From a virus: 45,441 bases of DNA. Below are positions 2,920 through 26,310 of the stretch, in pieces (position 1 is the stretch's first letter; the number at the start of each line of letters is the position of its first letter). The position numbers and the translations under genes were made by a program. The DNA lies in IMG/VR virus record IMGVR_UViG_3300045988_038629, positions 1 through 45,441 of that record. One strand, written 5' to 3'. Below the pieces are notes generated by a model. That model had not been told where the DNA came from and did not search any database. It saw only the letters and a list, made by a program, of their open reading frames with translations.

Positions 2920-5900
2920 TCAATCCTTTCGTGAAATATTGTTGATAAGTTCTTTTAACTGCTCTACCTCTGCTGATAAAGCATCAATTTTAGAAAGTAA
3001 TATCTGGTTATCTGACTGCAATGCCAGAACCTTCTCATGGTCGTTTTTCAGCATGGCAAACATGCATGGGATCATAATGCGATAATTCCAGTTTTCAGCT
3101 TTACCTTTTTCATTATGGTCAACAGCTAATGGAAATCTTCGGTCAATGTCCTCGGCTATAAACATCGGCATTTCTTTACCGTATCGTTCATCTTGCTCAG
3201 ATAAATATCCGTCTTTGTATTTCGCCCAGATTACTTTGATTCTGTATAGGTCTTCCAGCTCGTCTTCTTTGATGGATTTCCCAAGCACTTTGTAGTGCAT
3301 GGAGGATGATGAGGAATATCCAACATAAAGATATGTTGGACTAAAAACCATCGGATTTCCAGCAGTAAGTGCTTTCATTCCTTCTATCATTAAATTTTGA
3401 GCTACCTTAAATATCAAATCACCAGTTACAGATTGGAGAACAACATTTCTCTTGTTTTCATATTGCGCTGATAAGTCAAGAAGTCCATCTGTTATGCTGC
3501 CATATCCAGCACTAAATATAGATTCTTTTATTTGCGCCCACTCATTCCCTTTTATATTTTTGAATCCATCTGTATTGTTTATTTTGCAAATAACATTTCC
3601 GCTAGCATCATACACCTCAAAAGTGCCATATCCATTATTTGGACCGCCGAGCTTCAATGTGCCGCCCTTGGCGTAAGTGAACGAAATATATAGCTGATTT
3701 CCCTCTTTATAAATTCCTTTAATTGCGCCATCATTGGTTAAGAGGTTAAATATTTCTTCATGTGTAAGTGCATCTACATCAATTACAACCGCCATACTTT
3801 GGGAATCTAATGGTTGTGAAAATCCACCCGCCGCGTATAAGGTACATTTTATGGCACTTACATCTCTTGGAATTCCAATTGACCTTCCAGAAGCCGTTGT
3901 TATAATTCCTCCCGCTTTAGTTGATAATACCGTATATAAATTATGTGAAACGCTTGTTTCGTCTTTCGCAGAAGAATATACCGTTTTCCAATTTTCCCCA
4001 TCTACGGATTCTTCGATTTTAAAACGACCTTTATATGCTGTTCGTGTTTCCGCGTTTCCATCGCGATACCAAGCACTCAAAGTAATATAGCTCGGGGCTA
4101 CACTGCCATTCGCGCGTTGCTTAATAACATATGATGGGCTTTCAAGAAAATATGTCCTACCAGGTACACCTTGTTCTCCTTTTGGCCCCTGGAGGCCGTC
4201 AACGCCATCTTTGCCAGCGTAAATTTTAGCCAGCGAAAATCTCTTAACTACTGATAGAACACTGATATATGTTGCTTTAATATCTACCCATCCATCGTCA
4301 GCGGATAATGCTGTTACCGTGTATGTCTTGGTTGCATTATTCCAGGATCCTGTTACACTATCTGATTTGATAATTGTAAATTTGCAATCAGATGTAATAT
4401 CCTGTGTTCCGTACATTACGACCGCCTGTGTACTCACGTTACTCGGAAACGTTCCATAATTTCCATCAGAATCAACAGAAACGCCCTGGTATTCGTTACT
4501 CAGCTGCAAGGTCATATTCTTGGCAAGAGCCGCCGCTTCCTGTGCCTGTTTAGCTGCTGCCAATGCGTCTTCAGAGTCTTTCAGTGCCTTTGTAACGTCC
4601 GTATCTTTCAACTGTTTCCAATAATACCCATTGCCCTCATTTACAAATCGGTAAGCATGGCTATTACCATCATAATAAATATCTCCGACATGCTTGCTCA
4701 TTTCGGTATCATCCAGCCACTCATTAGCTGGATAATTACTCAATGTAGGCACTGAGGTTCCTGTCCAGGTGTTTATATTCCCATCAATCTGCCCCTGCAT
4801 GCTGCTTAACAATCCGTCCAAAGGTGATGCGCCGATTCTGACAGAAGCACCATCAATAACGATCTGGTTGTTATCAATATCTGCTGAAAAAATAATCTTC
4901 CCGTTTGCGTCACGCACGATCAGCGCGCCGGCATTGATGTAGCTTGCATTGATTCCCTCGGCGTATAGCAGTCTTGTAATCATTTCTCCTGTAACAGTAA
5001 ATCCATAAGGATAGGTTTTTCCACCATCTGTAGAAATTCCAATGGCTTCCGCCGTGAGTTTCCATACAATATCTGATTCTTCCAGAGTCGGCTTATTGTG
5101 CATATAATAGATTACACTACCGTCGTCCTGTGGATCTTCTGTCATATAAAGCCCGCCAGACTCCTTAAGCGTATTTGCTAGCCTTTCAACGGCTTTTTCG
5201 CGCTCTGTGCGTTCATCCTTAACAAGTTGTCTAGCTTCTACCAGTGCTTTTGTAGCTTCCGACATATATGTGCTGCTATTTCGGATGGGATCATCTGCCT
5301 GCGTTTTTACAGTGGTAATGCCATTTAACGGAGATGATACATCAGTAATCGGTGTAAGATATTTATTTCCGTTCCGATCAAAGCTATATGCCATGTCTCC
5401 AAACTCTAACAGAGGATTATAAATCAGATCTCCTTGCAGATTTCGGAATTTAGCCCCGACCAGATCGCCACCGATCCATGCCGCTACAGTTCCGAGGTCA
5501 CTGTCAGACAGAAGATTATTTTCCAACTCCAGAACATATCCAGCAGTTCCAAACAGGGATTCCGATTCTTTGTTTTTTACTCTGATACCAGTAATTACAA
5601 TATCATCACTGGAAAGTGTAGGACTACTCACGTAATCCTCTAATTTAAACGGAACTAAGGAGCCGTTTTCGACAGCTCCAAAATTCCATTTTATAAACTG
5701 CAAATAACCTCTGTTGTCAATTCTGGCGTTTGCTGTCTCTAGCATTGCCGCCCATCCGATCAATTGACGGAATGTCATATTATCTGGGAGCGCTGTGACA
5801 ATTACATTTCCATGCGCCATAGAGGAAAATCCAATAGGGATATTCAAACTCTCACAAGCGTCTCTTACCAGCGCTATAACTGTCTGTGGAAGTGTCAGAG

Positions 5901-6804: not shown

Positions 6805-9800
6805 CTATGCCAATTCAAACGGATTTGTACCGCTTGCATCACGTCTTAACTTTGCTTCGTCAATCATCTCATCAAATATGGTTCGTCTGTTGAGCTGTGC
6901 GGTAAATCTATAGCTTCCGCCAGACTGCTGTCCTCCAGTTTCTTCCCTTACAATCTGCCTTAACAATTCTTCTGGTGCTTCCAGGTTGCGACCATTCTTC
7001 TGATCTCCAAGCACTGCAAGGAACTCTGATCTTGGCGGGATAACGGCACCTTTTGCAAGATATGGAATTGTAGGAACTCTTGGGAAATTAGCTGTAAATC
7101 CAATTGTCCTTGAGCCAAACGGAGTTGGAACCTTCCACGGTCCAAATGTAAATGCTGATTCAATGCCGCCGATTGCACTGTTTACAGTTCCAATAGCGCT
7201 GTTTGCAATTCCGATCACTTTGTTTAATATATCTTTGATAGTATCGCGTATACCTTCAAAAACTCTTACAACTGTATCTCTGGCACTTGTAAATTTATCA
7301 ACGATTGCATCATGAATAGCATTTACTTTTCTGTCAACAAATGTTGTTATACTTTCCCATATAGATGACGTTTTTTCTGATACAGAATCCCAAATTCTTG
7401 TAATTTTAGACTTTATTCCATCAAATACTGTCGAGACTGTAGTTTTTATTGCTTCCCACGTATTAGACAGCCATGTTTTTATAGCATTCCATATTGTAAC
7501 AGTAACTGTTTTTATTGCGTTCCAAGAAAGAGAAATGATACTTTTTATTATTGTTAATGCGGTTTCCACTATTCCATTAATAGCTTCCCAGGCTCCAGAT
7601 ATAATATCTTTTATAAGGTTCCATACACCTCTTGCAATTTCTTTGATTCCGTTCCATGCCAGTTCCCAATCTCCTGTAAAAACTCCTTTCAGAAAATCAA
7701 TAACTCCGCTCAGAACATCTAATACATCTCCAATAATTTTAATAACGGATTTTATTGCTTCTATAACAGTGCTACCAATTACATTTGCCACGTCTGCTAT
7801 TACTGGAATCACATTCGATATAATCCAGCTAATTATTGGGACTAAAATATTTTCCCAAAGTTCTTTTAAGATATCTATTAATTTGCCAAGAAACGTTTGG
7901 ACCTTTACAAACATTTCTCCCAATTCCCCATCCATAAGCTCTTTTATTTTAGAAGCCAAACCTTGCAGAACCGGTAGAATATATGTGTTATATCCATCTA
8001 TTAAAGTTCCAAAAATGGTTGAAAGTCCATTAGCTATTGAATCGAAAAAAGGTTTTAAATGCTCATCGTATAATGCGGTCACCAAATCAGAAAGATTTTG
8101 AATAACTGTCGATAATCCATCGGTTATTGTTTCGATAACCCCAAGTGTTCCTTCGACTGCGCTTTTTAATATATCCTTATTATCAATGAACGGCTGTGCG
8201 ATCATATTCAGCATATCTCTTCCAAGTCTTGCACATAATCCCATAGCAGTCATTGAGATATTCGAGAATATCCCTATGATATTGGCTGTTATCTGCTGCG
8301 CAATTTCTCCACCAAATGCAGAAAATACCTCTGCTAGAGCGGATGAAAAATTTCCTTCAATTTGAGCAACCTCAGATCCAATATCAAACATATCAATTAA
8401 ATATGTTTTTATTCTACTGGTGTTTTGCTTTATAAATTTTTCTATTCCTCCAATAAGATTTTGAGCAATTGTTATTCCAATCCTCGAAAAAGATCCAGAT
8501 ACTCTTCCAATGGAATAGGCAAATGTATCTAAAAAATCACTTGCCGCTCCAATTACTTCTGGATCAGTAAATATATTCTGCAAGGATTTCCCGATAGAGT
8601 TAATATTTTCCTTAATATCATCAAAAATCGGTTTGTAATCGCCTAGTCCATCCCAGAATCCTTTTGATAGCAATTTGGCTAATTTTTTAAACTTCTTTAT
8701 TATGGAATCAAGCGGCTTGGACATTTTTTTAATAGTCGTTTCGCCTTCTGCAAGTTTACCGTAATCCACATTATTTACTGCACCGGATAATCCTCCAGAA
8801 GCTCCACCACCTCCGCCAGATGAAGATGGTGTGGACGATGAGTTGCTACCTGTAGATGTGGCTTTGTGAACTTCATCAAGTGACGAAAGATAGTTTTTTG
8901 TTTCTTTATTTGCTTTTTTCGTAGCTGTTGCATTATCTTTATTGGCATCTGCCAATTTCTCTGCATTATCCGCTGCCTGTCCATACTGATCTGCTGTATC
9001 CGCAATCGCTCCTGTTCCAGCAAGCCCTGCTCCGCTTCCACTTGTCTGACCTGATGATTTCTTGCCAGTAATCAGTTCTGTGAAGCTTTTAAATGCATTT
9101 GCCAGAGTTGCCAGTTTACCGAGTAGAATATTGATTACTTTCAGAACAGGTGTGAAAATATTAATCAATCCCTGCCCAACTGTTGCTTTGAGAGACTGCA
9201 TCTGTAACTGCATTACTCGCACCTGGTTCGCCCAGCTGTCTGAAGTGCGGATGAAATCTCCAGATGCAGCTGATAACTGCTTCTGCACAAAAGCCAATCG
9301 GAGAGCTACTTTCTCCTGTTCGGTCATTTCAGACGTGGTTTTGCCATAGCCATTGGCAAGTGCGTACTGGTCGAGTGCGCTTTGTGTAAGGACCACGCCC
9401 AAATCTTTCAATGTTTCCGTTTCGCCTGTAAACACTGATTTCAGCTTAATATAAGCCAAGTCCTGACTGATGTTATAAAATGATGCCACGTCACCGGTCA
9501 GCTGCGTCAGAGCTGTTGACATGTCATAAGCCTGCTGTTCTGAGAATCCGAACGACTTGGACATTGCGCCGAACGTGCCGACATACCTTTTTGCCATAGT
9601 TTCAGATAGGCCAGCAGAAGTCATGGCATTCTTTGCAAATTCATTGACTTTATCCGACATGGTGGTAAATGTAACATCGACCACGTTCTGTACTTCTGTC
9701 AGATCAGAGCCAAGCTCCACGCACTCTTTTCCGAACTGCACTAACTTGCCAACTGCAAACGCCCCACCAATCAGCAGACCGATTTTTTTTACAGCACTCC

Positions 9801-9912: not shown

Positions 9913-10485
9913 TTATTTGAGGTTCAACATCTCATTCAGCTTATCTTTATAAGCTTGCTCTTCTTCACTGAGACGTGTTTTTATGTCAATTGTGTTTTTA
10001 TTTTCTTGATAGAATTTCTTTTCCCATTTATCCAGGCGTTCGCCCTTCGCCTTTTTAGAGCGGATTCCAACAACTGTGTTAAACAGGCATTCACCGGATT
10101 CCATGAAATATCCGAAGAATGTCCACCAGTGCATATACGGCACGGCTCTGATTTCTTTACCAGCAACCTTGTTCACCGCCGGAACGATCATATCTCCGTC
10201 TTGTTCCCAGTCCATTAACCGGGGTTTAGGGTGGTTCGGATTATTGTCAGATTGTCCGCAGTCGATGAACTCCGATGCTTTTTGACAAGCTTCATCCAGA
10301 CACTCAACCGGTATGCTTTGCCAATCCTCGAATAGAATCTGTAACATAACAACTGCTTTCGCCTGTTCATCCAGCTCTGGGTCATTCATGGCAATGAGAA
10401 TGTCAATAATTACTCGAAAATCGGTTCTAATAGAAAAATCCACCCCACTTATATTGAGTGAGGTGGGAAGCTCATAGGCGGTCAT
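9913..10485 (-). CDS. Tail assembly protein (Phage_Gp15-like)
   Basis: ELPTSLNISGVDFSIRTDFRVIIDIL... pattern. Sits immediately upstream of the TMP gene and overlaps the previous gene by ATGA. Confidence 0.55.
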   Translation of the reverse strand: MTAYELPTSLNISGVDFSIRTDFRVIIDILIAMNDPELDEQAKAVVMLQILFEDWQSIPVECLDEACQKASEFIDCGQSDNNPNHPKPRLMDWEQDGDMIVPAVNKVAGKEIRAVPYMHWWTFFGYFMESGECLFNTVVGIRSKKAKGERLDKWEKKFYQENKNTIDIKTRLSEEEQAYKDKLNEMLNLK

Positions 10486-10907
10486 TTTGCATACTTCTCC
10501 GTATACTTATTGACTGCTGCCTGCATTTTCTTTTTTCTCTTTTCGATTTCCGGTGTGATTGCATCTGCGATTTTGTCAAGTACGATATAGGCGAATACCT
10601 GTCCGTTTCCAAACACGGTGGTTGCTGTGATCGGCTCTTTGAACAGGTCTTTTGATGCTTCATATCCGAGCAGATAGTTGATTTTGTCTTCGATCTGTTT
10701 ATTCAGTTCAGCCATTTCTTTACCAGACGTGACTTTCTGGATAGGCTCTTTAAGCTGTTCAAAGTATTCTGCCGTTTCTTCTGCACGTGCTGCTACATTG
10801 ATATCGGTCGGATTCAGTCTGAAAAAAGAAAAAACTTCGTCTTCGTTGTTGGTAAATGTGAATATAAAAATTCCATCATCAATTTTGGTATTAATTACTT
10901 TTGCCAT
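10482..10907 (-). CDS. Tail assembly chaperone
   Basis: Acidic 141-aa protein between the major tail and Gp15-like genes. Confidence 0.5.
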   Translation of the reverse strand: MAKVINTKIDDGIFIFTFTNNEDEVFSFFRLNPTDINVAARAEETAEYFEQLKEPIQKVTSGKEMAELNKQIEDKINYLLGYEASKDLFKEPITATTVFGNGQVFAYIVLDKIADAITPEIEKRKKKMQAAVNKYTEKYAK

Positions 10908-11515: not shown

Positions 11516-12025
11516 TTATATTACTTCATAAGTATTTTCATAGCGTACTGACAATGGCAATAACCAGTCCTGTACGCCACTCTCCTGTGGCTCTAAACCA
11601 TAGGAATTATCATGGGTTATACGTTTTATCACTCGCCCCTGTGAAAGCTCTGGAAAAGCATTTAAGCGCGTCTCAGAGCCGTTTATGATAACTGGTTCCC
11701 GGCATATCCATTTACCGAGATTGTCCAGGAACTTCTGAACAGATAACTTCTGCCGTTCTTTGTCTGATGCCGTGCGGTAAACCACATAAAATGGGTACTG
11801 GCATACCTGATGCATCACTCCGCATACATCTTCCTTTTCCGAATAGATTAAAGCTCCGTTGTCTGCCGAGAAAGCGATTCCGGAATCTTTGCCGAGTTCT
11901 TCAAATTTGATTGTTTCATTTTCGTATAGCCCTGGATACTGATTCAGAAGTGCTTTCATGGCATCTGTCAAAATCTCATATCCGGTTGCATCTTTTCCGA
12001 TAGGTTTATCCGCCATGTCTGCCAC
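11516..12025 (-). CDS. Head-tail connector/tail terminator (Minor_capsid_3-like)
   Basis: Position and size. Overlaps the upstream gene. Confidence 0.5.
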   Translation of the reverse strand: MADMADKPIGKDATGYEILTDAMKALLNQYPGLYENETIKFEELGKDSGIAFSADNGALIYSEKEDVCGVMHQVCQYPFYVVYRTASDKERQKLSVQKFLDNLGKWICREPVIINGSETRLNAFPELSQGRVIKRITHDNSYGLEPQESGVQDWLLPLSVRYENTYEVI

Positions 12026-15919: not shown

Positions 15920-15996
15920 ATATATCCTCCTGGTCGTGTTTATTGACCTGCCGCCGCAGGTAAATGGATTAAGCCAGTTAGACCACTGGCAAGGTA

Positions 15997-16069
15997 ATGA
16001 AATAGGCGGAATCGAACCGCCGACACGCACCCTATGCGGATGTTGCTCTACCAACTGCGCTATATTTCA
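15997..16069 (-). tRNA. tRNA-like gene with anticodon CAU (Met/Ile2-type), atypical
   Basis: Hand-folded cloverleaf: acceptor TGAAATA/TATTTCA, D arm GCGC-AGTTGGTA-GAGC, T arm GGCGG-TTCGATT-CCGCC. The anticodon loop CGCATAG has G33 instead of U33, and the first pair is U1-A72. Confidence 0.5.
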
Positions 16070-16134
16070 CTGCGCTTTTCGAACTGCCCAGCAGTTAACA
16101 GGATAAGCGTTAACCTTTTCAACATGTTGAATCA

Positions 16135-16224
16135 TGGGAAAGATAGGAATTGAACCTATAATGTTTACCACGAGGGGACGGATTTACAGTCCGCCGTAAC
16201 ACCGCCAATCGTTACCGCTTTCCC
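16135..16224 (-). tRNA. tRNA-Tyr (GUA), class II with long variable arm
   Basis: Acceptor GGGAAAG/CTTTCCC, anticodon arm GCGGA-CTGTAAA-TCCGT, T arm ATAGG-TTCAATT-CCTAT, discriminator A. Confidence 0.8.
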
Positions 16225-16509
16225 ATAACCCGGATTCCCGGGTTAGCAAGGTATTTATCGTGTTATGCCTGCCACTATCCGACTTTCACGGAGATGTTGT
16301 TTCATTTACAAGGAGGTGTTACCAGTCAGTCAAACTGGCTAATGAATATGCCGGAAATTGCACCCGCTTTTCAACCTCCAGATTCCGCTCAAATCTGCTT
16401 CATCTGTTTCTCTTAAGGGCATATTCGCAAAGAAAGGAGGACATGAAACGAAAAAGAAAGCAAAAACTTCTAATCAGCAAGCCCTACAAGGTTCACCACG
16501 CCTTGCAAG

Positions 16510-16553
16510 ATTATAGTATCACATTCTTTTAAAAAAGTTGTCCCCACATTTTG
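16510..16553 (-). promoter_or_regulatory. Candidate late promoter (AAAATGTGGGGACAA + 22 nt + TATAAT) upstream of the tRNAs/scaffold/capsid
   Basis: The 15-mer TTGTCCCCACATTTT is identical to 26280-26294. TATAAT (minus strand) lies at 16510-16515. Confidence 0.5.
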
Positions 16554-16558
16554 TCAAA

Positions 16559-17122
16559 TCAAAGCATATTTCTTAATTTCTCAACGTATCTCTTAACAAG
16601 ATCACGTTCTTCCCGGCACTCTGCGTCCTTGGACATATCGCTCATTTCTGTTGTAAGTTCATCCAGATGTTCTTCCAATGCGGCAAGCATCTTTCTCTTG
16701 CAGTCCTCAGATTTGCCGGAACGATAGCTCTGTTTCTGTGTCATATAGTCACTGTAAGTATCTCGCCCATCAGATCGACTGTAATTTTCTCTTCCAGTTC
16801 CGTAGTTGCGACTTTCATCGCCGTAAGAGCTTCCACGATCATAATCCGGGTACATCATTCTTCCATCGCTGCGGCTGTATCTCCCCATGCCGCCACGTTT
16901 TCTTCCGCGCTCGCTGTAATCGTCATTGTATCCGCTACGCATTTCATCAAGGACGGCGTTGTAATACTCCGCTTTCTTATCCCAGTACTGCGTGTTCTTT
17001 ATATCTTTGTACATATCAATCAGCTTGTATGTCATTTCCAGGTTTCCAGTGGTCAGTCCACTGTCAGCAATTTTGGACAGTTCGTCTTCAATTCTTGCAC
17101 ATAAATCTTTAATGTCTCTCAT
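16559..17122 (-). CDS. Hypothetical protein: helical ends flanking an R/S/Y/D/G-rich low-complexity core
   Basis: GGAGGT RBS 6 nt before the ATG at 17120-17122. Core sequence YSERGRKRGGMGRYSRSDGRMMYPDYDRGSSYGDESRNYGTGRENYSRSDGRDTYSDY. Confidence 0.65.
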   Translation of the reverse strand: MRDIKDLCARIEDELSKIADSGLTTGNLEMTYKLIDMYKDIKNTQYWDKKAEYYNAVLDEMRSGYNDDYSERGRKRGGMGRYSRSDGRMMYPDYDRGSSYGDESRNYGTGRENYSRSDGRDTYSDYMTQKQSYRSGKSEDCKRKMLAALEEHLDELTTEMSDMSKDAECREERDLVKRYVEKLRNML

Positions 17123-17133
17123 AATCACACCTC

Positions 17134-17553
17134 CTACGCTTCTCTGGTCACAACAATGTTCGCATTTGCAACAGAAATAGCCTGATCGCTTGTGTTCTCT
17201 ACTGCAATATTAACGCAACATCCACGAGGTACATCAATATAGATGCCAGAGGACACATTGTTATACTGGTCTACTGCTGCCGGTGTGGAAATCATCTGAG
17301 AAGAAAGAACCGGTTCGCCAGAGATTGCAATAGCCAGAGAAATAGCTCCGACAGTGCCTCCTGTTGGAATTGCGATATTTCCAGAAAAATCCACGAAGAA
17401 TCTCGCTTTGCACTGATTAGTCAGTCCTCTCAGCGTAATAATTCCGCTTCCCTCTCTGTGCTGAATGCAGTTACCTTTAACTGCTGTGTTTGAAAATACT
17501 ACATTCCCTTTTGCTGCTACAGTCTGAGCAGCTACATTTGTAAATTCTGCCAT
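17134..17553 (-). CDS. Hypothetical all-beta protein, possible BclA-C/C1q-TNF-like jelly roll
   Basis: AAAGGAG RBS. The pattern VVFSNTAVKGN.IQH..GSG.ITL...ISLAIAISGEPV...IAVENTSDQAISV.NANIVVTR recalls the BclA C-terminal domain; this is recollection only. Confidence 0.6.
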   Translation of the reverse strand: MAEFTNVAAQTVAAKGNVVFSNTAVKGNCIQHREGSGIITLRGLTNQCKARFFVDFSGNIAIPTGGTVGAISLAIAISGEPVLSSQMISTPAAVDQYNNVSSGIYIDVPRGCCVNIAVENTSDQAISVANANIVVTREA

Positions 17554-17575
17554 AAAAATACTCCTTTCATATCAC

Positions 17576-17600
17576 AAAAGGACAGGTCTCAGCCTGCCCC
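17576..17600 (-). terminator. Possible weak attenuator/terminator inside the cassette
   Basis: Minus strand: GGGGCAGG-CTGAGA-CCTGTCCT followed by TTTGTG. Confidence 0.3.
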
Positions 17601-17664
17601 TCTGTGTAATACGGCATAAGCCGACATCCGAAATCAATCGAAAGATACTCTCGATATGAAGTTA

Positions 17665-18444
17665 TCAGCAATTACATCCAGTGTTGCATCCACATCCGTA
17701 ATATGTGTTTGGGTTAGGAACCTGATATGCCGGAATCGGTGCCGGATTGATTGCATTAATGAGCTGCTGTGTCTGAGATGCCATTGCAGTTGTAAGAAGT
17801 GCGCTCTGGCGATCCTGAGAAGCGGCGCGTCTGAGGTCGTTGTTTTCAGCCTGCAGGTTAGAAATCTTTTCATTGCAAAGATAATCAAGAATTGCTCTTG
17901 TTCCTGCGTTCTGGCTGTCAATAATGTCTCTTGTGTTGCTGTTCATGGTGTTCTGGATTGTACAAGCATTGGTGGCCATATCGTATCTGATCTGCGCCTG
18001 TCCCGCTCTGTTGTCGCAGCAACACTGAGCTAACTGAGACTGCAATGCGTTTGTATTCTGCATATTCGCTACAGTATCGGCATTGATTGCCTGCTGGATT
18101 CCAAAGCCGGTCTGCATAATATTCGTATTGATGCCGTTGAATCCGGTAAGCATACCGTTGTTCACTGCATAGAATCCATCACAGAGGCCGTTATTGATTC
18201 CGTCAAGCTTGCTGATTACTGCGGAGTTATCAAATCCTCTCTGAATGTCTGCCTGAGTAGCTGCTGTGGCTGCATATCCACCGCCGTTGCCATTATTGCC
18301 CCAGCCGTTGTTTCCCCATCCGAAGAAAGCAAAAATGAATAAAACAATAATCCACCAGCTGCCATCTCCACCAAACATGCCGTCATTATTTCTACCGTTT
18401 CCAGTAGCGGCGGCAATGTCTGCTAAACTATAATTTCCATCCAT
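17665..18444 (-). CDS. Hypothetical membrane-anchored Q/N-rich protein with a Cys-rich C-terminus
   Basis: TM WWIIVLFIFAFFGW flanked by G/N runs. Internal QCCCDN. C-terminal YYGCGCNTGCNC. AAAGGAG RBS. Confidence 0.65.
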   Translation of the reverse strand: MDGNYSLADIAAATGNGRNNDGMFGGDGSWWIIVLFIFAFFGWGNNGWGNNGNGGGYAATAATQADIQRGFDNSAVISKLDGINNGLCDGFYAVNNGMLTGFNGINTNIMQTGFGIQQAINADTVANMQNTNALQSQLAQCCCDNRAGQAQIRYDMATNACTIQNTMNSNTRDIIDSQNAGTRAILDYLCNEKISNLQAENNDLRRAASQDRQSALLTTAMASQTQQLINAINPAPIPAYQVPNPNTYYGCGCNTGCNC

Positions 18445-18498
18445 AGTTATAATCTCCTTTATTGTGTATTTACATCAATCTGGCCAGATTGTAATGTA

Positions 18499-18720
18499 CT
18501 ATTTCATTCCTTTCAACATGTGCTGGAATTGCCCTGCCATCTGTTGAACTTGATTGAGCTGCTGTTGAGAAATCTTTCCAGACTGCAACATTTTCTCGAC
18601 TTCTGCTTTCGGATCTCCCTTAAAATTCTGCTTAAACTGCATAAACTGCTGTATCATCTGCATTGGTCCGTTTCCCTGTGTCATCCCACCGCCAAGCGCG
18701 TTAAATAGTGGATTACTCAT
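18499..18720 (-). CDS. Hypothetical Q-rich 73-aa protein
   Basis: GGGAGGAA RBS. Overlaps the upstream gene by 8 nt. Confidence 0.6.
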   Translation of the reverse strand: MSNPLFNALGGGMTQGNGPMQMIQQFMQFKQNFKGDPKAEVEKMLQSGKISQQQLNQVQQMAGQFQHMLKGMK

Positions 18721-19183
18721 CTGCGTTTCCTCCCTTGACTGCTGATTCCTGTGCGGTATTAGCCCTAACAGGCTCAGAAAAAGAATTTAATCTACTTGCT
18801 ATAGCGTCGAATTTGGCTTTTAAATCGTCGTATTCCTTTCTGGTGACGTATTTACTGTCCATACTCTGAACAGGCTGTTTAGGCGGCATCTGAGCGCCCA
18901 CCTCATGGTATTCAAACGTCCGTAATGGTTGCGGCATACCGGAAACGTCTGTGGATTTTATATAGAATTTTTCTGATTCTGAATCCATCAGCAAAACGCT
19001 TGTCCCTGGTGCTACCAGATAGGATTTTGCACCTACTTCGCCAGACACCCACAGGATTCCATTGTTATTCTGCTGTGGTTGCTGCACTGGTTGAGCTGGC
19101 ATCTGGACAGGTTGTTGCTGGAACTGGTTCATTTGCCCAGGGACGCCAAAACTATATTGATAAGGATTGTTATATAATGCCAT
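18713..19183 (-). CDS. Hypothetical protein with a Q/P-rich N-terminus
   Basis: ATG at 19181-19183. QMNQFQQQPVQMPAQPVQQPQQNNN followed by the GILWVSGEVGAKSYLVAPGTSVLLMDSE core. Confidence 0.6.
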   Translation of the reverse strand: MALYNNPYQYSFGVPGQMNQFQQQPVQMPAQPVQQPQQNNNGILWVSGEVGAKSYLVAPGTSVLLMDSESEKFYIKSTDVSGMPQPLRTFEYHEVGAQMPPKQPVQSMDSKYVTRKEYDDLKAKFDAIASRLNSFSEPVRANTAQESAVKGGNADE

Positions 19184-19216
19184 CTTATACACCGCCTTTC
19201 TGATTATATTTTTGCA

Positions 19217-19252
19217 TAAAAAAAGAACCGGAAACAGGTCGTTTCTGGCTCT
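19217..19252 (-). terminator. Intrinsic terminator after the small HTH gene
   Basis: Minus strand: AGAGCCAGAAAC-GACCT-GTTTCCGGTTCT followed by TTTTTTT. Confidence 0.75.
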
Positions 19253-19271: not shown

Positions 19272-19472
19272 TCAGCACACTTTGATTATTTTATTATTTA
19301 CCCTCCGGCTTAACCGCTTTGCTGTAGATATGCTCACGTTCATTTGCTCAGCGCAGTATTCGAGCGTATATTCCTTGCATCTCAACCGGAACAGTCTTTC
19401 TTCGTCCGGTGTAAAATTACACTCTATCAAGAATCTGTCTATATCTTTCTTAGTGAACACATATAATTTCAT
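19272..19472 (-). CDS. Small sigma-70 region-4-like HTH protein (putative transcription regulator)
   Basis: TPDEERLFRLRCKEYTLEYCAEQMNVSISTAKRLSRRVNNKI matches the region-4 HTH pattern. Confidence 0.55.
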   Translation of the reverse strand: MKLYVFTKKDIDRFLIECNFTPDEERLFRLRCKEYTLEYCAEQMNVSISTAKRLSRRVNNKIIKVC

Positions 19473-19495
19473 GAGCATACCCCTTATTAATGCAA

Positions 19496-19801
19496 TTAAC
19501 GCTGATTCTGTGCAAGATAATTTGTAAGCTTCTGTTTTGTTTTTTTTAATTCTTCTACATTATTCCCACTAATCTGGCTGTCCAGCATGGTTGATAACAC
19601 TTCCAGAATTAATGAATCTCGCTCTGCAATCCTCTGAAGACTCTCAAAGTCACGCTTGTCGTGTTCTTCCAGTGTTTCTACTCGCTTATTAAGTCGGAAT
19701 GCCGGGGTAATCCATTTAAAGATTACAGCCGCTGCCCCTCCGACAATAGACACCCCTCCGCAGATAGAAAGGAAAATCTGTACAAATTCTGATATGCTCA
19801 T
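19496..19801 (-). CDS. Hypothetical membrane protein (N-terminal TM + coiled coil)
   Basis: FLSICGGVSIVGGAAAVIFKWI followed by a charged helix. Confidence 0.55.
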   Translation of the reverse strand: MSISEFVQIFLSICGGVSIVGGAAAVIFKWITPAFRLNKRVETLEEHDKRDFESLQRIAERDSLILEVLSTMLDSQISGNNVEELKKTKQKLTNYLAQNQR

Positions 19802-19805
19802 TTAG

Positions 19806-20189
19806 CTACTCCTTTTCCCAGTAATATACCGGGACTTCATTTCCGGAATCCCATGTATCATAATATTTACCATCTTGTACTGTCACCACATGACCATCTA
19901 TACAAAGGATATACGTACCTGTCGGATGGTCTGTACAAAAGTCGTTGACTGTATAGATATATCGCTCTGATTGTTCAATCAGTTTGCGTCTGTACCCGCG
20001 TTTATAGAGGTACGCTCCCCAAACATAATTTGCACTCGGCATATCTGACAGAGTGCACGCCTGTATCATTAATCCGACGAATACCGTTTCCCAGTCGAAG
20101 CCAGTTGCTTTGCATATTGCTCGGACAACGCAATCTCCTGTTCTTTTATCCTTAACAGGATTTGGATTATAATATTCCCATCTGTCCAT
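19806..20189 (-). CDS. Hypothetical papain-fold-like Cys/His protein
   Basis: NPNPVKDKRTGDCVVRAI (Cys) ... IDGHVVTVQDGKYYDTWDSG (His). Confidence 0.5.
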   Translation of the reverse strand: MDRWEYYNPNPVKDKRTGDCVVRAICKATGFDWETVFVGLMIQACTLSDMPSANYVWGAYLYKRGYRRKLIEQSERYIYTVNDFCTDHPTGTYILCIDGHVVTVQDGKYYDTWDSGNEVPVYYWEKE

Positions 20190-20662
20190 CAGTCAATCCC
20201 CTTTGCTGTCTTATATCGTTTTGCCGCTCCTCTGGCTTTTGCGGCGTTCTGGCGGTCCCATTTAGCTATCATAAGTCGGTCTTGCAGTTCTCTCAGGTCA
20301 TTCTGCTTGCAGTAGTCCTTATATGCAGCATTTTGTTTCTGTAAAAGATAAGACTTCCGGTCAAGGTCTTGCTGTAATGCGAATTTCGCCTTTTCGTTCG
20401 GTGCATTGTCGACTCCTGCTTGTAATCCAAGAACCTCTCTCTTTGTTTTGCGGATTCTTCGCTCATAAGTACGTTGCCGCTGTTCTTTTTCGTACTGTTT
20501 GCCTTTGTCGGCTTTGTCCTGTGCTGATAATTCTGTATAAGGGTTCGGCATTCCTTCCGCCCAAACTGAAAAATGATGTCTGCAATTTACTCCGCATATT
20601 CCATCGGCTTCGCCATAATGACAATTTTCAATAAAATCAGGATAAGTATGTTTTTTATTCAT
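20189..20662 (-). CDS. C-terminal fragment of the head-morphogenesis/minor capsid protein 2 (SPP1 gp7/Mu F-like)
   Basis: The GICGVNCRHHF motif is typical of the family's C-terminal part. Has its own GGGGTGA RBS and ATG. Confidence 0.65.
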   Translation of the reverse strand: MNKKHTYPDFIENCHYGEADGICGVNCRHHFSVWAEGMPNPYTELSAQDKADKGKQYEKEQRQRTYERRIRKTKREVLGLQAGVDNAPNEKAKFALQQDLDRKSYLLQKQNAAYKDYCKQNDLRELQDRLMIAKWDRQNAAKARGAAKRYKTAKGID

Positions 20663-20679
20663 AAATAGTCACCCCATAA

Positions 20680-21360
20680 TTACTCAATATTTGTATATCC
20701 CCAATATTTTAATTCCATTTGTTTCCTTGCCATTACTGCTTCTTCTTTGGTTTTAAAAACTCGATCTTCTACGCGTTTTCCGCCTACAGAAATATAAGCT
20801 CTCCATTTTGAATGATTATTGTCAAATAAAACTCCCTTTATACCACTTTTATTGTTCTTGTTTAATGTTGTGGGATTTTTTATGTTTTCTACAATTTCGT
20901 CAAAAGTCCATCCATGATTAAGCCTTTTTCTTATATATTCACGATGAACGCCAAAGAAATGTTCCCATTCACCTACGGTTTTTGTATCTCCTTGGTATTT
21001 AATTTTCCAACTGCTTTGTTTGTTGTTGTTTTGCCATTCTAATGGCACCCACCGACAATTATCAGGAGAATACCCTTTATTAACATCTATCCTGTCTATT
21101 GTAAGTTCTTTTTCGTACCCGCTTGTGTAAGCCCATAATAAAAAAGGTTTGAATTCTTTCCATTCATCACATACTGTTATTCCTCTATCAAAATACGCCA
21201 CTTTGTTATGAGGCTGTGCCTTTTCAGATGTTCTTATTTTCATGCCTGCCCATATTTTGTATAATCGAGTTCCTGCCATTCCGTGAGAATATCTGTAGGA
21301 TTTCCCTGAAAGTGGTTTTTCTTTTTTACCATTTTTAATACAAAATTCTTCAAAAGTCAT
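20680..21360 (-). CDS. HNH homing endonuclease with a C-terminal AP2 DNA-binding domain
   Basis: LTIDRIDVNKGYSPDNCRWVPLEWQNNN (HNH_3) and GIKGVLFDNNHSKWRAYISVGGKRV...EEA (AP2). Start at MTFEEF with an AAAGGAGAA RBS. Confidence 0.8.
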   Translation of the reverse strand: MTFEEFCIKNGKKEKPLSGKSYRYSHGMAGTRLYKIWAGMKIRTSEKAQPHNKVAYFDRGITVCDEWKEFKPFLLWAYTSGYEKELTIDRIDVNKGYSPDNCRWVPLEWQNNNKQSSWKIKYQGDTKTVGEWEHFFGVHREYIRKRLNHGWTFDEIVENIKNPTTLNKNNKSGIKGVLFDNNHSKWRAYISVGGKRVEDRVFKTKEEAVMARKQMELKYWGYTNIE

Positions 21361-21473
21361 TGCGTTTTCTCCTTTCAACTACATTTATCTACATTCAATT
21401 ATATCATTATTTTATTTTAATTGCAAGTAGTTGAAAGTTATGATAAGCTTTAGTATGAAAGGAGTTGAATAAA

Positions 21474-21641
21474 ATGTCAAATAACAGAGGTTTAAAAAAC
21501 CGTGTAGCAATATCAAATGCTATTGATCGTGAAATTTACGAAAAATTAAAATCGTATTCTGATGATACTGGAATACCTATCAGTAAATTGCTCGATAAAG
21601 CAATTTCATTGTATCTCGATTCTATCAAAGATAAGGCTTGA
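21474..21641 (+). CDS. Ribbon-helix-helix (CopG/Arc-like) protein, 55 aa
   Basis: Translation MSNNRGLKNRVAISNAIDREIYEKLKSYSDDTGIPISKLLDKAISLYLDSIKDKA. GAAAGGAG RBS. Below the ORF-track size cutoff. Confidence 0.6.
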   Translation: MSNNRGLKNRVAISNAIDREIYEKLKSYSDDTGIPISKLLDKAISLYLDSIKDKA

Positions 21642-22305
21642 TTTCTTTTAATTTTTCCCAGTCTATAGAGAATACCTGCCCTTGCCACACTTCATGGCTT
21701 GGGCGGCTTCCTATATGTGCCGATGTCAGCACTAAGCCATATCCCATTTCTTTCATTCTTGCTAACTGAATATCAGCACACGCCTGAGCCACACCAGTTC
21801 TGACAGAACGCGCAACTGCGGTTTCAATCGTGTCTTTTCTGCCAGATGGATATGTGACGGTGACACCATCTGATACAACATTATTAACCGCCTCTTTGAC
21901 GGCTTGCGTATATCCAACTGCCCCAGTCATCACATGATTATATGCAAGGTCGCATTGCTCAATATAGAGCCTCTGAGCGGCACTTGCGGTTGTTCGTGTA
22001 AAGTTCTTCCACTCGCCCATGGTTGCAAGCATATTCCGCTCCATGAGTCTTATCATTGTCGGTGACTGTTCGAGCGGTACAGGGCTTAGTCCTGCCGCCT
22101 TATAGACCTTGTCGTCATAGTTCATTGCAGTGATTCCGGCATCCTCAAACGCTTCAAGAAGTTCCTGCTGTTCACGTTTGGTATATTTGGATAATTCCGC
22201 TAGAATGTCCTCTAACAGCTCGCCGGACTCTTGTAGCGTTCTGATTCTCCATGCATCAGCATTGGTCAGAATATAATCTTCACCTCTGCCGATTCTTGCC
22301 ATCAT
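21625..22305 (-). CDS. N-terminal fragment of the head-morphogenesis/minor capsid protein 2
   Basis: SAHIGSRPSHEVWQGQVF motif. The frame stays open upstream to 22407 and encodes family-like sequence (LSPEYLRRITEGSEQIAEELHQYIISEIVSR) with no ATG/GTG/TTG codon. A possible ATT/ATA start lies at 22404/22401 after a GAGGTGA RBS. Confidence 0.65.
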   Translation of the reverse strand: MMARIGRGEDYILTNADAWRIRTLQESGELLEDILAELSKYTKREQQELLEAFEDAGITAMNYDDKVYKAAGLSPVPLEQSPTMIRLMERNMLATMGEWKNFTRTTASAAQRLYIEQCDLAYNHVMTGAVGYTQAVKEAVNNVVSDGVTVTYPSGRKDTIETAVARSVRTGVAQACADIQLARMKEMGYGLVLTSAHIGSRPSHEVWQGQVFSIDWEKLKEIKPYL

Positions 22306-26197: not shown

Positions 26198-26251
26198 GTT
26201 CTCACCTCCAAACAAAAAACTGCCACATATGGCATATAGTCATAGATATAT

Positions 26252-26295
26252 ACTATATTACCATACATGGCAGAAAAATTTGTCCCCACATTTTA
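26252..26295 (-). promoter_or_regulatory. Candidate late promoter (AAAATGTGGGGACAA + TATAGT/TAATAT) upstream of terS
   Basis: 15-mer identical to 16538-16552. Confidence 0.5.
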
Positions 26296-26310
26296 ATATT
26301 AATTGTAGTA

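Follow-up and report, generated by a model that had tools for sequence, protein, structure and literature searches.

Why would a phage carry a block of five genes of odd composition between its head-morphogenesis gene and its scaffold and capsid genes, and what could such a block do there? The question is raised by IMG/VR virus record IMGVR_UViG_3300045988_038629, of which the whole 45,441-nucleotide (nt) stretch was analysed (hereafter the window), and in which five minus-strand open reading frames (ORFs), here called genes i to v, make up the block (Table 1). Most likely the block is a cassette in which a TNF-like protein of the exosporium type is joined to a Cys-rich membrane stalk and to partners that are prion-like or of low complexity, and which relocates together with its own control element. 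As to what it does, we tentatively propose, at somewhat under an even chance, that it is a separately expressed accessory operon which builds a membrane-tethered stalk-and-knob assembly with low-complexity partners, acting in the cell and not in the virion; our confidence in any particular physiological role is much lower than that.

A sequence-only reading of the window had described five minus-strand ORFs with odd compositions, preceded by a hairpin with a T-run and followed by a late-promoter motif, and all of these were found where it had placed them. Its positioning of the ORFs between the head-morphogenesis and scaffold genes also stood, but the slot is not filled by the five ORFs alone: the same gap also holds a 127-codon gene (p127), an ORF with a transmembrane (TM) helix and a coiled coil, a sigma-like ORF (sig68), a RAGATH-21 RNA and two tRNAs. 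The likely starts of genes i and v are ATG 19183 and ATG 17122, as a Shine-Dalgarno sequence lies ahead of both. None of the five cassette proteins was matched in Pfam, NCBIfam or PADLOC scans, and over all eight scanned proteins (cassette and neighbours) the only match was a weak sigma region 4 in sig68, with 0/8 matching a PADLOC defence-system model at E ≤ 1. Similarly, PDB sequence searches with single sequences and profiles gave no significant match for the products of genes i, iii, iv and v or for p127. All five cassette proteins do match PHROGs, each of which is labelled as unknown function.

Table 1. Coordinates of the cassette genes, control elements and neighbouring genes in the window.
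Feature	Position	Strand	Description
gene i	18713-19183 (ORF 18713-19192)	minus	156 amino acids (aa); ATG 19183, AAAGGCGG before start; phrog_21718
gene ii	18499-18720	minus	73 aa; 8-nt overlap with gene i; phrog_22984
gene iii	17665-18444	minus	signature gene of the cassette; phrog_16490
gene iv	17134-17553	minus	139 aa; stand-alone C1q/TNF-type jelly roll (predicted)
gene v	16559-17122 (ORF 16559-17128)	minus	187 aa; ATG 17122, GGAGG before start; phrog_28802
5' boundary element	19203-19252	minus	GC hairpin 19224-19252, T7 run, TATGC-AAAAAT 19208-19218, overlapping TATAAT 19203-19208
iii-iv spacer hairpin	17573-17606	minus	14 bp; 60-nt stretch dG -28.9, z -5.7
late-promoter-like site	16510-16554	minus	AAAATGTGGGGACAA, T-run, TGATACTATAAT
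sig68	19272-19478	minus	68 aa; sigma-70 region-4-like helix-turn-helix; weak Sigma70_r4 and ECF matches
TM/coiled-coil ORF	19496-19801	minus	101 aa; N-terminal TM helix KD19 2.21, coiled-coil tail
p127	19806-20189	minus	127 aa; phrog_3754; often directly upstream of gene i

The five genes also occur as a block elsewhere, a check that had been proposed along with the sequence-only reading. A tblastn search of phage records and a gene iv profile scan, restricted to one genome per species, yielded 12 phage and 69 genome loci, in which genes were labelled using iterated local hidden Markov models (HMMs). The order i-ii-iii-iv-v is kept in nearly all of the 83 related loci, phage and genome alike, usually with sig68 and/or p127 just upstream; gene i was labelled in 66 loci, iii in 81, iv in 76 and v in 75, and the gene ii slot is filled by an ORF of 65–100 aa in nearly every locus examined. 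Most of the genome loci come from Lachnospiraceae, Acutalibacteraceae, Oscillospiraceae and further Clostridia, and a smaller number from Bacilli and Selenomonadales. The families are large: gene iv forms at least 8,000 clusters at 90% identity, nearly all of about 140 aa, and gene iii at least 8,000 clusters at 90% and 2,202 at 50% identity, essentially all stand-alone proteins of 240–300 aa. One gene iv variant alone is indexed in 578 blocks of an assembly collection. Only two plasmid records matched gene iii, and the cassette is phage-borne.

Variant cassettes, found in C. perfringens phage HMD-PC1, bajarodcaudo virus 5 and MT835477, keep genes i, ii and iii and have gene iv swapped for another small Cys-rich family. 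The Bacteroides (uniformis) phage C3_41T2LP contains a clear gene iii homolog with the same anchor, QCCCD, PAPIPAYCVPNPNCC and GCGCGC end; the next gene encodes a 180-aa protein bearing a KCCG motif, and the neighbours of the homolog are of similar size. An hhalign comparison of the gene iv profile with this 180-aa protein detected no homology, and variant cassettes are therefore taken to carry an unrelated or undetectably related Cys-rich protein in place of gene iv; a Pfam search of the neighbours in variant cassettes returned nothing useful. Weaker gene iii matches are present in crAss-like phages.

The genomic position of the cassette does not follow that of the capsid genes. In the window, in Dulem 35 and in about ten genome loci it lies in the head cluster, between the minor-capsid or head-morphogenesis gene and the scaffold and major capsid protein (MCP) genes. 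It directly follows the lysin or holin gene in Butyrivibrio phage Ceridwen, Dulem 33 and bajarodcaudo 5, while in crAss cr125_1 a weakly matching iii-like gene comes after a holin gene and a LysB-like gene. In C. perfringens HMD-PC1, Bacteroides C3_41T2LP, Dulem 39 and an abundant 60-kb lineage it lies amid early, recombination or anti-restriction genes; in the free genome of the 60-kb lineage it follows the integrase gene, and in prophages of this lineage it is the outermost block beside host genes at three different chromosomal integration sites. Conversely, Flavonifractor phage Chenonceau (MCP 59.5% identical) and Dorea phage DO134P1 (MCP 53%) lack the cassette and are absent from both the gene iii and the gene iv match lists; they have the same portal-morphogenesis-scaffold-MCP order, the slot being nearly empty or occupied by different small genes. 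As these two phages lack it, this capsid type assembles without the cassette, and the slot is a variable insertion site. Morons are autonomous inserts in late operons, flanked by promoter and terminator, as defined for HK97 and lambda-like phages, and the presence-absence pattern here is that of a moron: Ceridwen, Dulem 33 and MT835551 have a related MCP and carry the cassette elsewhere in the genome. Taken together, the variable position, the capsid relatives without a cassette and the 5' element of its own argue that the cassette is a mobile, separately transcribed accessory and not a required head part.

These observations bear directly on a role in the virion. Capsid decoration or cement, one of the functions suggested from the sequence, is disfavoured, since linkage to the capsid genes is not kept, the capsid relatives do without the cassette, and the late-promoter motif restarts after the block. 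A broader version, in which genes iii and iv would form a trimeric fibre with a TNF-like knob on capsid or tail as a non-essential accessory, with i, ii and v as assembly helpers, is better served by the position in the head cluster, by the frequency of TNF/C1q-like knobs in viral fibres (the short tail fibre of cyanophage A-1(L), and collagen and C1q proteins of giant viruses and phages), and by the lack of signal peptides, which virion proteins share with the cassette proteins. We nevertheless hold it to be unlikely: the block is also present in early regions, at the prophage edge and behind the lysin gene, untied to structural genes and missing from capsid relatives, a terminator-like hairpin stands ahead of it, gene iii has a segment that looks like a membrane anchor, and gene iv has no attachment domain.

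With regard to control elements, the intrinsic-terminator-like hairpin previously noticed before the block, and the TATAAT beyond it, are both confirmed: the hairpin and its run of seven T residues have a folding energy of -12.8 kcal/mol (z = -3.8), although a 1x1 mismatch within its stem hid it from a simple terminator-consensus scan. Lineages in which gene iv is 46–81% identical conserve the same layout of GC-rich hairpin, T-run, R-T-G-Y-N-A-A-A-A-T and a Shine-Dalgarno sequence 10–20 nt further on. Hairpin, T-run and the extended -10-like sequence TRTGYNAAAAT precede the cassette in 19 of the 66 loci and in the window (20/67), and an upstream hairpin with T-run, regardless of the motif, is present in the window and 29 of the 66 loci. 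The strict form TTTT[AG]TG[CT]NAAAAT was found 19 times on the coding strand within 450 nt upstream of gene i and once elsewhere in 1.79 Mb searched on both strands; its single copy in the window is at 19221 on the minus strand. By consensus rules the 5' element would comprise a terminator and, after it, a promoter of the extended -10 type (TRTGn and a hexamer with A at -11 and T at -7). A sporulation-sigma or sigma-54 promoter was also considered and rejected on inspection by eye, as spacing and invariant bases do not fit either of these and do fit an extended -10. In Dulem 35, a 14-bp terminator separates sig68 from gene i.

On the other side of the block, the late-promoter-like site begins within 5 nt of the gene v stop codon. 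As had been proposed, a late-promoter motif copy follows the block, and it has a counterpart: the 17-mer at 16538-16554 recurs once in the window, with two mismatches, immediately ahead of the small terminase gene (26280-26296). The 17-mer, a T-run and a TGnTAnTATAnT box are shared at equal spacing by the two sites (16510-16554 and 26250-26296, the latter within 26240-26310), which are thus read as late promoters of activator-dependent appearance; one precedes terS, and the other precedes a unit of RAGATH-21, tRNA, scaffold and MCP genes. The exact late-promoter 11-mer is absent from every fetched relative locus. Late transcription therefore seems to end before the cassette and to restart after it, which fits a cassette expressed on a schedule unlike that of the virion genes. 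The transcriptional separation suggested for the window is thus supported, as far as sequence comparison goes, by a 5' hairpin and promoter-like element which is conserved in distant relatives.

Gene iv gives the clearest indication of what the cassette encodes. The sequence-only reading had staked itself on a C1q/BclA-C-like fold for its product, and modelling bears this out. An AlphaFold2 (AF2) model, built from an alignment of 83 sequences from two homolog searches, is all-beta with ten strands (predicted local distance difference test score, pLDDT, 86.2; predicted template modelling score 0.78), and its best Foldseek match in the PDB is the C-terminal domain of F-BclA (9h38; E 3.6e-7, TM-score 0.69–0.73), with BxpB (8d02), ExsFA (7r1m, 9h3d), EDA, 4-1BBL and the C-terminal domain of BclA (1wck, 2r6q) among the other top matches. 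The Foldseek probability was 1.00 for the top matches, with TM-scores of about 0.6–0.76, and C1q domains proper matched less well than BclA, ExsF and TNF-ligand structures. Among the predicted viral structures in BFVD, the best matches are unannotated gut-phage proteins of 130–143 aa, one of them named 'BclA protein', followed by collagen and C1q proteins from giant viruses and phages. At the level of the predicted fold, a ten-strand sandwich, the gene iv product is a member of the C1q/TNF jelly-roll superfamily. Membership of BclA_C, C1q or TNF was not found at the sequence level, with no Pfam family at E ≤ 0.1 and no NCBIfam match for the window protein, and no Pfam assignment in any of the 240 gene iv relatives among the matches listed. 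Cysteines C29, C48 and C112-C113 are conserved. The protein has neither GXY repeats nor an exosporium leader, and TIGR03720 matched no cassette protein, so it is not an exosporium glycoprotein of the BclA type; being stand-alone and without a collagen stalk, it is closer to ExsF/BxpB than to BclA.

As the closest folds are the exosporium proteins F-BclA, BxpB/ExsFA and BclA, lysogenic conversion of the spore or cell surface deserves attention; here a prophage-encoded gene iv protein (TNF-like), gene iii protein (Cys-rich), gene v protein (CotG/CotC-like) and gene i protein (GerQ-like, Q-rich) would be built into the host spore surface. The compositions of the cassette proteins resemble, as we take it, those of spore-coat proteins, the N-termini without signal-peptide character fit assembly in the mother cell, the hosts are mostly Clostridia, and in integrated prophages the block is att-adjacent and outermost. 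This idea, also raised from the sequence, is therefore in keeping with the fold and with the att-adjacent position, yet weakened by the range of phages involved: Ceridwen, which infects Butyrivibrio fibrisolvens, has the cassette although only a lytic cycle was observed and it was judged to be virulent (PMC7372960), and a true gene iii homolog is found in a Bacteroides uniformis phage, with weaker matches in crAss-like phages. Collagen repeats are missing, there was no NCBIfam match including the exosporium leader TIGR03720, and inspection by eye picked out a sigma-A-like extended -10 but no promoter of the sporulation-sigma type. Conversion of the spore surface thus appears distinctly improbable.

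Gene iii is the candidate stalk. Its product starts with an acidic N-tail of 29 aa, followed by a 13-residue hydrophobic core WWIIVLFIFAFFG flanked by G/N/W runs, a conserved G/N-rich region (residues 57–130), QCCCDN, of which the conserved CCC marks the start of a long helix, and a conserved C-terminus YYGCGCNTGCNC with a Pro-rich tail (P.P.PAY.V.NP) and terminal GCGC. The membrane segment between G/N runs, the Q/N-rich middle with QCCCDN and the C-terminus described earlier can all be recognised in the sequence, with the qualification that the hydrophobic core is short. The AF2 model has a short helix over the hydrophobic core (residues 30–41) and one continuous helix at about 126–232 (pLDDT 70–85), along which a heptad-register scan gave shifting registers. 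The N-tail has a net charge of -3 and the first 25 residues after the anchor have no positive charge, features which we take to favour an N-out/C-in orientation. A Pfam scan of 76 gene iii relatives gave no consistent family. Compared with the closest full-length relative, MT835739.1, the window proteins are 97.9% (iv), 95.2% (p127), 88.2% (v) and 75.5% (iii) identical, making gene iii the fastest-evolving cassette protein; residues 57–130 are nearly invariant in close relatives, and the long helix is the variable part.

Profile comparisons matched residues 40–123 to influenza HA2 (9–88) and residues 131–220 to the ATP synthase b stalk, weakly and without significance (E 0.03–3). Together with the cassettes that directly follow lysis genes in Ceridwen, Dulem 33, bajarodcaudo 5 and crAss cr125_1 (holin, LysB-like), and the label 'spike protein/glycoprotein' given by crAss annotators to the gene iii homolog, these matches are what speaks for a lysis or egress accessory, in which gene iii would encode a membrane-active trimer of the spanin or fusion-protein kind that disrupts or remodels the envelope late in infection. 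We give this only a slight chance, as the endolysin gene in the window is about 16 kb from the cassette, the cassette is far from lysis genes in many lineages, genes i, ii, iv and v fit no known lysis system, and the profile matches are those non-significant ones.

The remaining three genes encode the low-complexity partners. The N-terminus of the gene i product is Q/P/N/Y-rich, with 12 Q and six P in its first 41 residues; a conserved core, small and beta-rich (V.G...A....V.....V.L.D......Y.KS.D..G.P....F...E), comes next, and the protein ends in a helix. Searches of Pfam and the PDB gave no relative. The gene ii product is Q/M-rich (21% Q), and probably small and helical. That of gene v contains YSRSDGR twice within a 74-residue stretch which is 76% R/S/Y/D/G, the low-complexity core being flanked by conserved helical N- and C-terminal segments. 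Composition counts thus agree with what had been read from the sequence for all three: the Q/P-rich start of gene i, the Q-rich gene ii and the doubled YSRSDGR. A hydrophobic N-terminal segment of the signal-peptide kind is absent from the products of genes i, ii, iv and v, which should consequently remain in the cytoplasm.

In 47 relatives, the length of the gene v core lies anywhere between near zero and over 100 residues, and the cores cannot be aligned, yet their Y/R/S/G/D richness is kept; similarly, the N-terminus of gene i varies among relatives and stays Q/P/Y/N-rich. This conservation of composition over sequence and length, and the position of the cassette amid early and replication genes in several lineages, could point to a condensate or matrix scaffold, the third of the functions suggested from the sequence, with i, ii and v phase-separating on a iii-iv platform and concentrating replication or assembly at the membrane. 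The support is compositional, however, and low-complexity regions are also common as plain structural or linker parts, which leaves this scenario rather improbable in our view.

The tentatively preferred interpretation, a membrane-tethered stalk-and-knob assembly acting in the cell, can be laid out as follows. A mobile, moron-like cassette, often accompanied by sig68 and p127, would have landed in the slot between head-morphogenesis and scaffold genes, where it would be transcribed apart from the late head operon. The gene iii product would be anchored in the cytoplasmic membrane, its acidic N-tail exposed outside and its stalk reaching into the cytoplasm. ExsF serves as an adaptor, each trimer taking up three Pro-rich leader peptides at its inter-protomer clefts (PMC12357932), and the tail-on-knob arrangement of iii and iv is modelled on this docking: the stalk would be a parallel trimer, of which the three Pro-rich, Cys-ended tails dock on a gene iv trimer. 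Conserved cysteines may lock this contact via a metal or disulfides, and the iii-iv platform may be joined by the Q-rich products of i and ii along with the low-complexity product of v. The assembly would then work at the host membrane, during infection or lysogeny, on a schedule unlike that of the virion genes. Candidate uses are excluding other phages, modifying the envelope or egress, and tethering phage processes, and the sequence cannot choose among them. A more specific version, which we consider rather doubtful, has a HA2- or spanin-like trimeric iii, Cys-stapled (CCC, GCGC) to an ExsF-like iv, seeding a Q/Y/R-rich matrix of i, ii and v on the inner membrane face; if true, infected gut anaerobes would contain an exosporium-style cross-linked scaffold, which might organise the infection, exclude rivals or remodel the envelope.

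Several points weigh against the stalk-and-knob assembly and its separate expression. The promoter reading of TRTGYNAAAAT comes from consensus rules, and the strict motif is present in just 20 of 67 loci. No terminator was found after gene v, so that the insulation is one-sided. The AF2 model of gene iii is poor (overall pLDDT 50, from a shallow alignment of sequences 77–97% identical), its 13-residue hydrophobic core is borderline (KD19 1.68), and the trimers, the contact between iii and iv and the membrane topology of iii are predictions. Finally, the head-cluster slot is shared by about ten independent loci, which also fits a non-essential virion accessory, and the four contexts that adjoin lysis genes could indicate a role in lysis.

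As regards the neighbouring genes, sig68 was labelled in 37 of the 83 loci, upstream of gene i every time. In p127, C20 (in GDC), H100 and D111 are invariant across 40 relatives, an arrangement of Cys, His and Asp which looks papain-like; these 40 relatives gave no consistent Pfam family, and 'putative peptidase' is a depositor's label only, in Bacillus phages. Tsamsa-like Bacillus phages, GBK2 and Lak phages have a p127 gene but no cassette. Two enzymatic roles considered for p127, a C39-type double-glycine leader peptidase that would act on GG motifs in ii and iii and a transglutaminase that would act on the Q-rich proteins, were dropped, because half of the cassettes have no p127. In its architecture the TM/coiled-coil ORF recalls holin-like proteins of the BhlA/UviB kind; neither PHROGs nor Pfam gave it a match, and the 83 loci gave no HMM match and one marginal BLAST match (Ceridwen, E 0.001–0.004). 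In many loci gene v is followed by a gene for a HExxH protein of about 106–128 aa (LHELGHC or IHEVCHA), missing from the window, with a faint DUF6782 match alone (for example at 9994-10380 in locus L012, 6024-6398 in L055 and 10173-10493 in L085); it may be a sixth cassette gene, possibly for a metallopeptidase. Upstream of the cassette, the head-morphogenesis gene (Phage_min_cap2) is split on the minus strand of the window into 21625-22305 (profile positions 32–245) and 20189-20662 (251–365), with a HNH/AP2-type homing-endonuclease ORF (20680-21378) between the halves. No group I or II intron was matched in Rfam in this region, even at E ≤ 1, and the cause may be an intron that escaped recognition or a genuine division of the gene by a free-standing endonuclease.

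The neighbourhood of the cassette is unusually rich in structured RNAs. In the hairpin of the iii-iv spacer the U-run is paired within the stem, and among relatives the spacer is a hot spot for insertions, which include an AntA gene, ORFs of 237–371 aa and, in loci L018 and L020, int-alpA RNA motifs; such motifs lie within the cassette beside inserted ORFs at 5750-5816 (-) in L007, 7140-7204 (+) in L018 and 6822-6886 (+) in L020. The RAGATH-21 RNA of the window (16343-16427, minus strand; 78 bits, above the gathering score) is just downstream of the cassette and the late-promoter-like site, and Dulem virus 35 (L003, 7008-7084, plus strand) has one at the equivalent place after gene v. Between the late-promoter-like site and RAGATH-21, a 29-codon ORF on the plus strand (16443-16532), MKRKRKQKLLISKPYKVHHALQDYSITFF, with the strong ribosome binding site AAAGGAGG, is antisense to the late transcript. 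Next to tRNA-Met (15996-16070), Rfam identified a second tRNA of 90 nt (16135-16224, minus strand; 40.7 bits) which was not reported by ARAGORN, and tRNA genes are also found downstream of the cassette in L011, L018, L020 and L029. Two type II hammerhead ribozymes (10504-10572 and 11821-11889, minus strand) lie downstream of the cassette in prophage L016.

In phages of human and animal gut Bacillota the cassette is one of the more frequent conserved gene blocks, and it is also found in the rumen. Working out its function would annotate thousands of phage genomes together and could reveal a new mode of phage action at the membranes of gut anaerobes, while the conserved 5' element provides a ready marker of the cassette boundaries. 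Literature searches, within the library covered, found no study of these proteins. The kinds of component, i.e. morons, C1q/TNF-like knobs and coiled-coil membrane anchors, are known, whereas the combination of genes, its conservation, its portable control element and its abundance are undescribed.

Of the known systems, morons come closest in organisation: the cassette lies between conserved head genes behind a terminator-like hairpin and a promoter-like element, is variably present, and is att-adjacent in prophages. It differs from them in being a conserved operon of five to seven genes, in lacking a detectable 3' terminator, and in occurring also in a probably virulent phage. The resemblance of gene iii to influenza HA2 consists of a hydrophobic, G/W-rich N-terminal segment, the pattern G-x-G-Y-A-A...T-Q-x-A-I...N-S-x-I-x-K and a long helix, but at E 0.6–3 homology is unsupported, and gene iii lacks both an ectodomain partner and a C-terminal TM segment. 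The C-terminal domain of BclA or F-BclA is the best structural match of gene iv (9h38, with TM-scores of about 0.67 for 1wck and 2r6q), which however has no GXY stalk, no leader and no BclA_C sequence match, the possible stalk being a separate polypeptide, gene iii. ExsF/ExsFA/BxpB of the Bacillus cereus-group exosporium is, like gene iv, a small single C1q/TNF jelly roll without a collagen stalk (TM-score 0.69–0.76). The two are only 10–12% identical, ExsF is chromosomal and gene iv phage-borne with a conserved Cys-Cys pair, and their distributions differ: gene iv is also present in Butyrivibrio phages, and the cassette variants in Bacteroides phages have no detectable gene iv.

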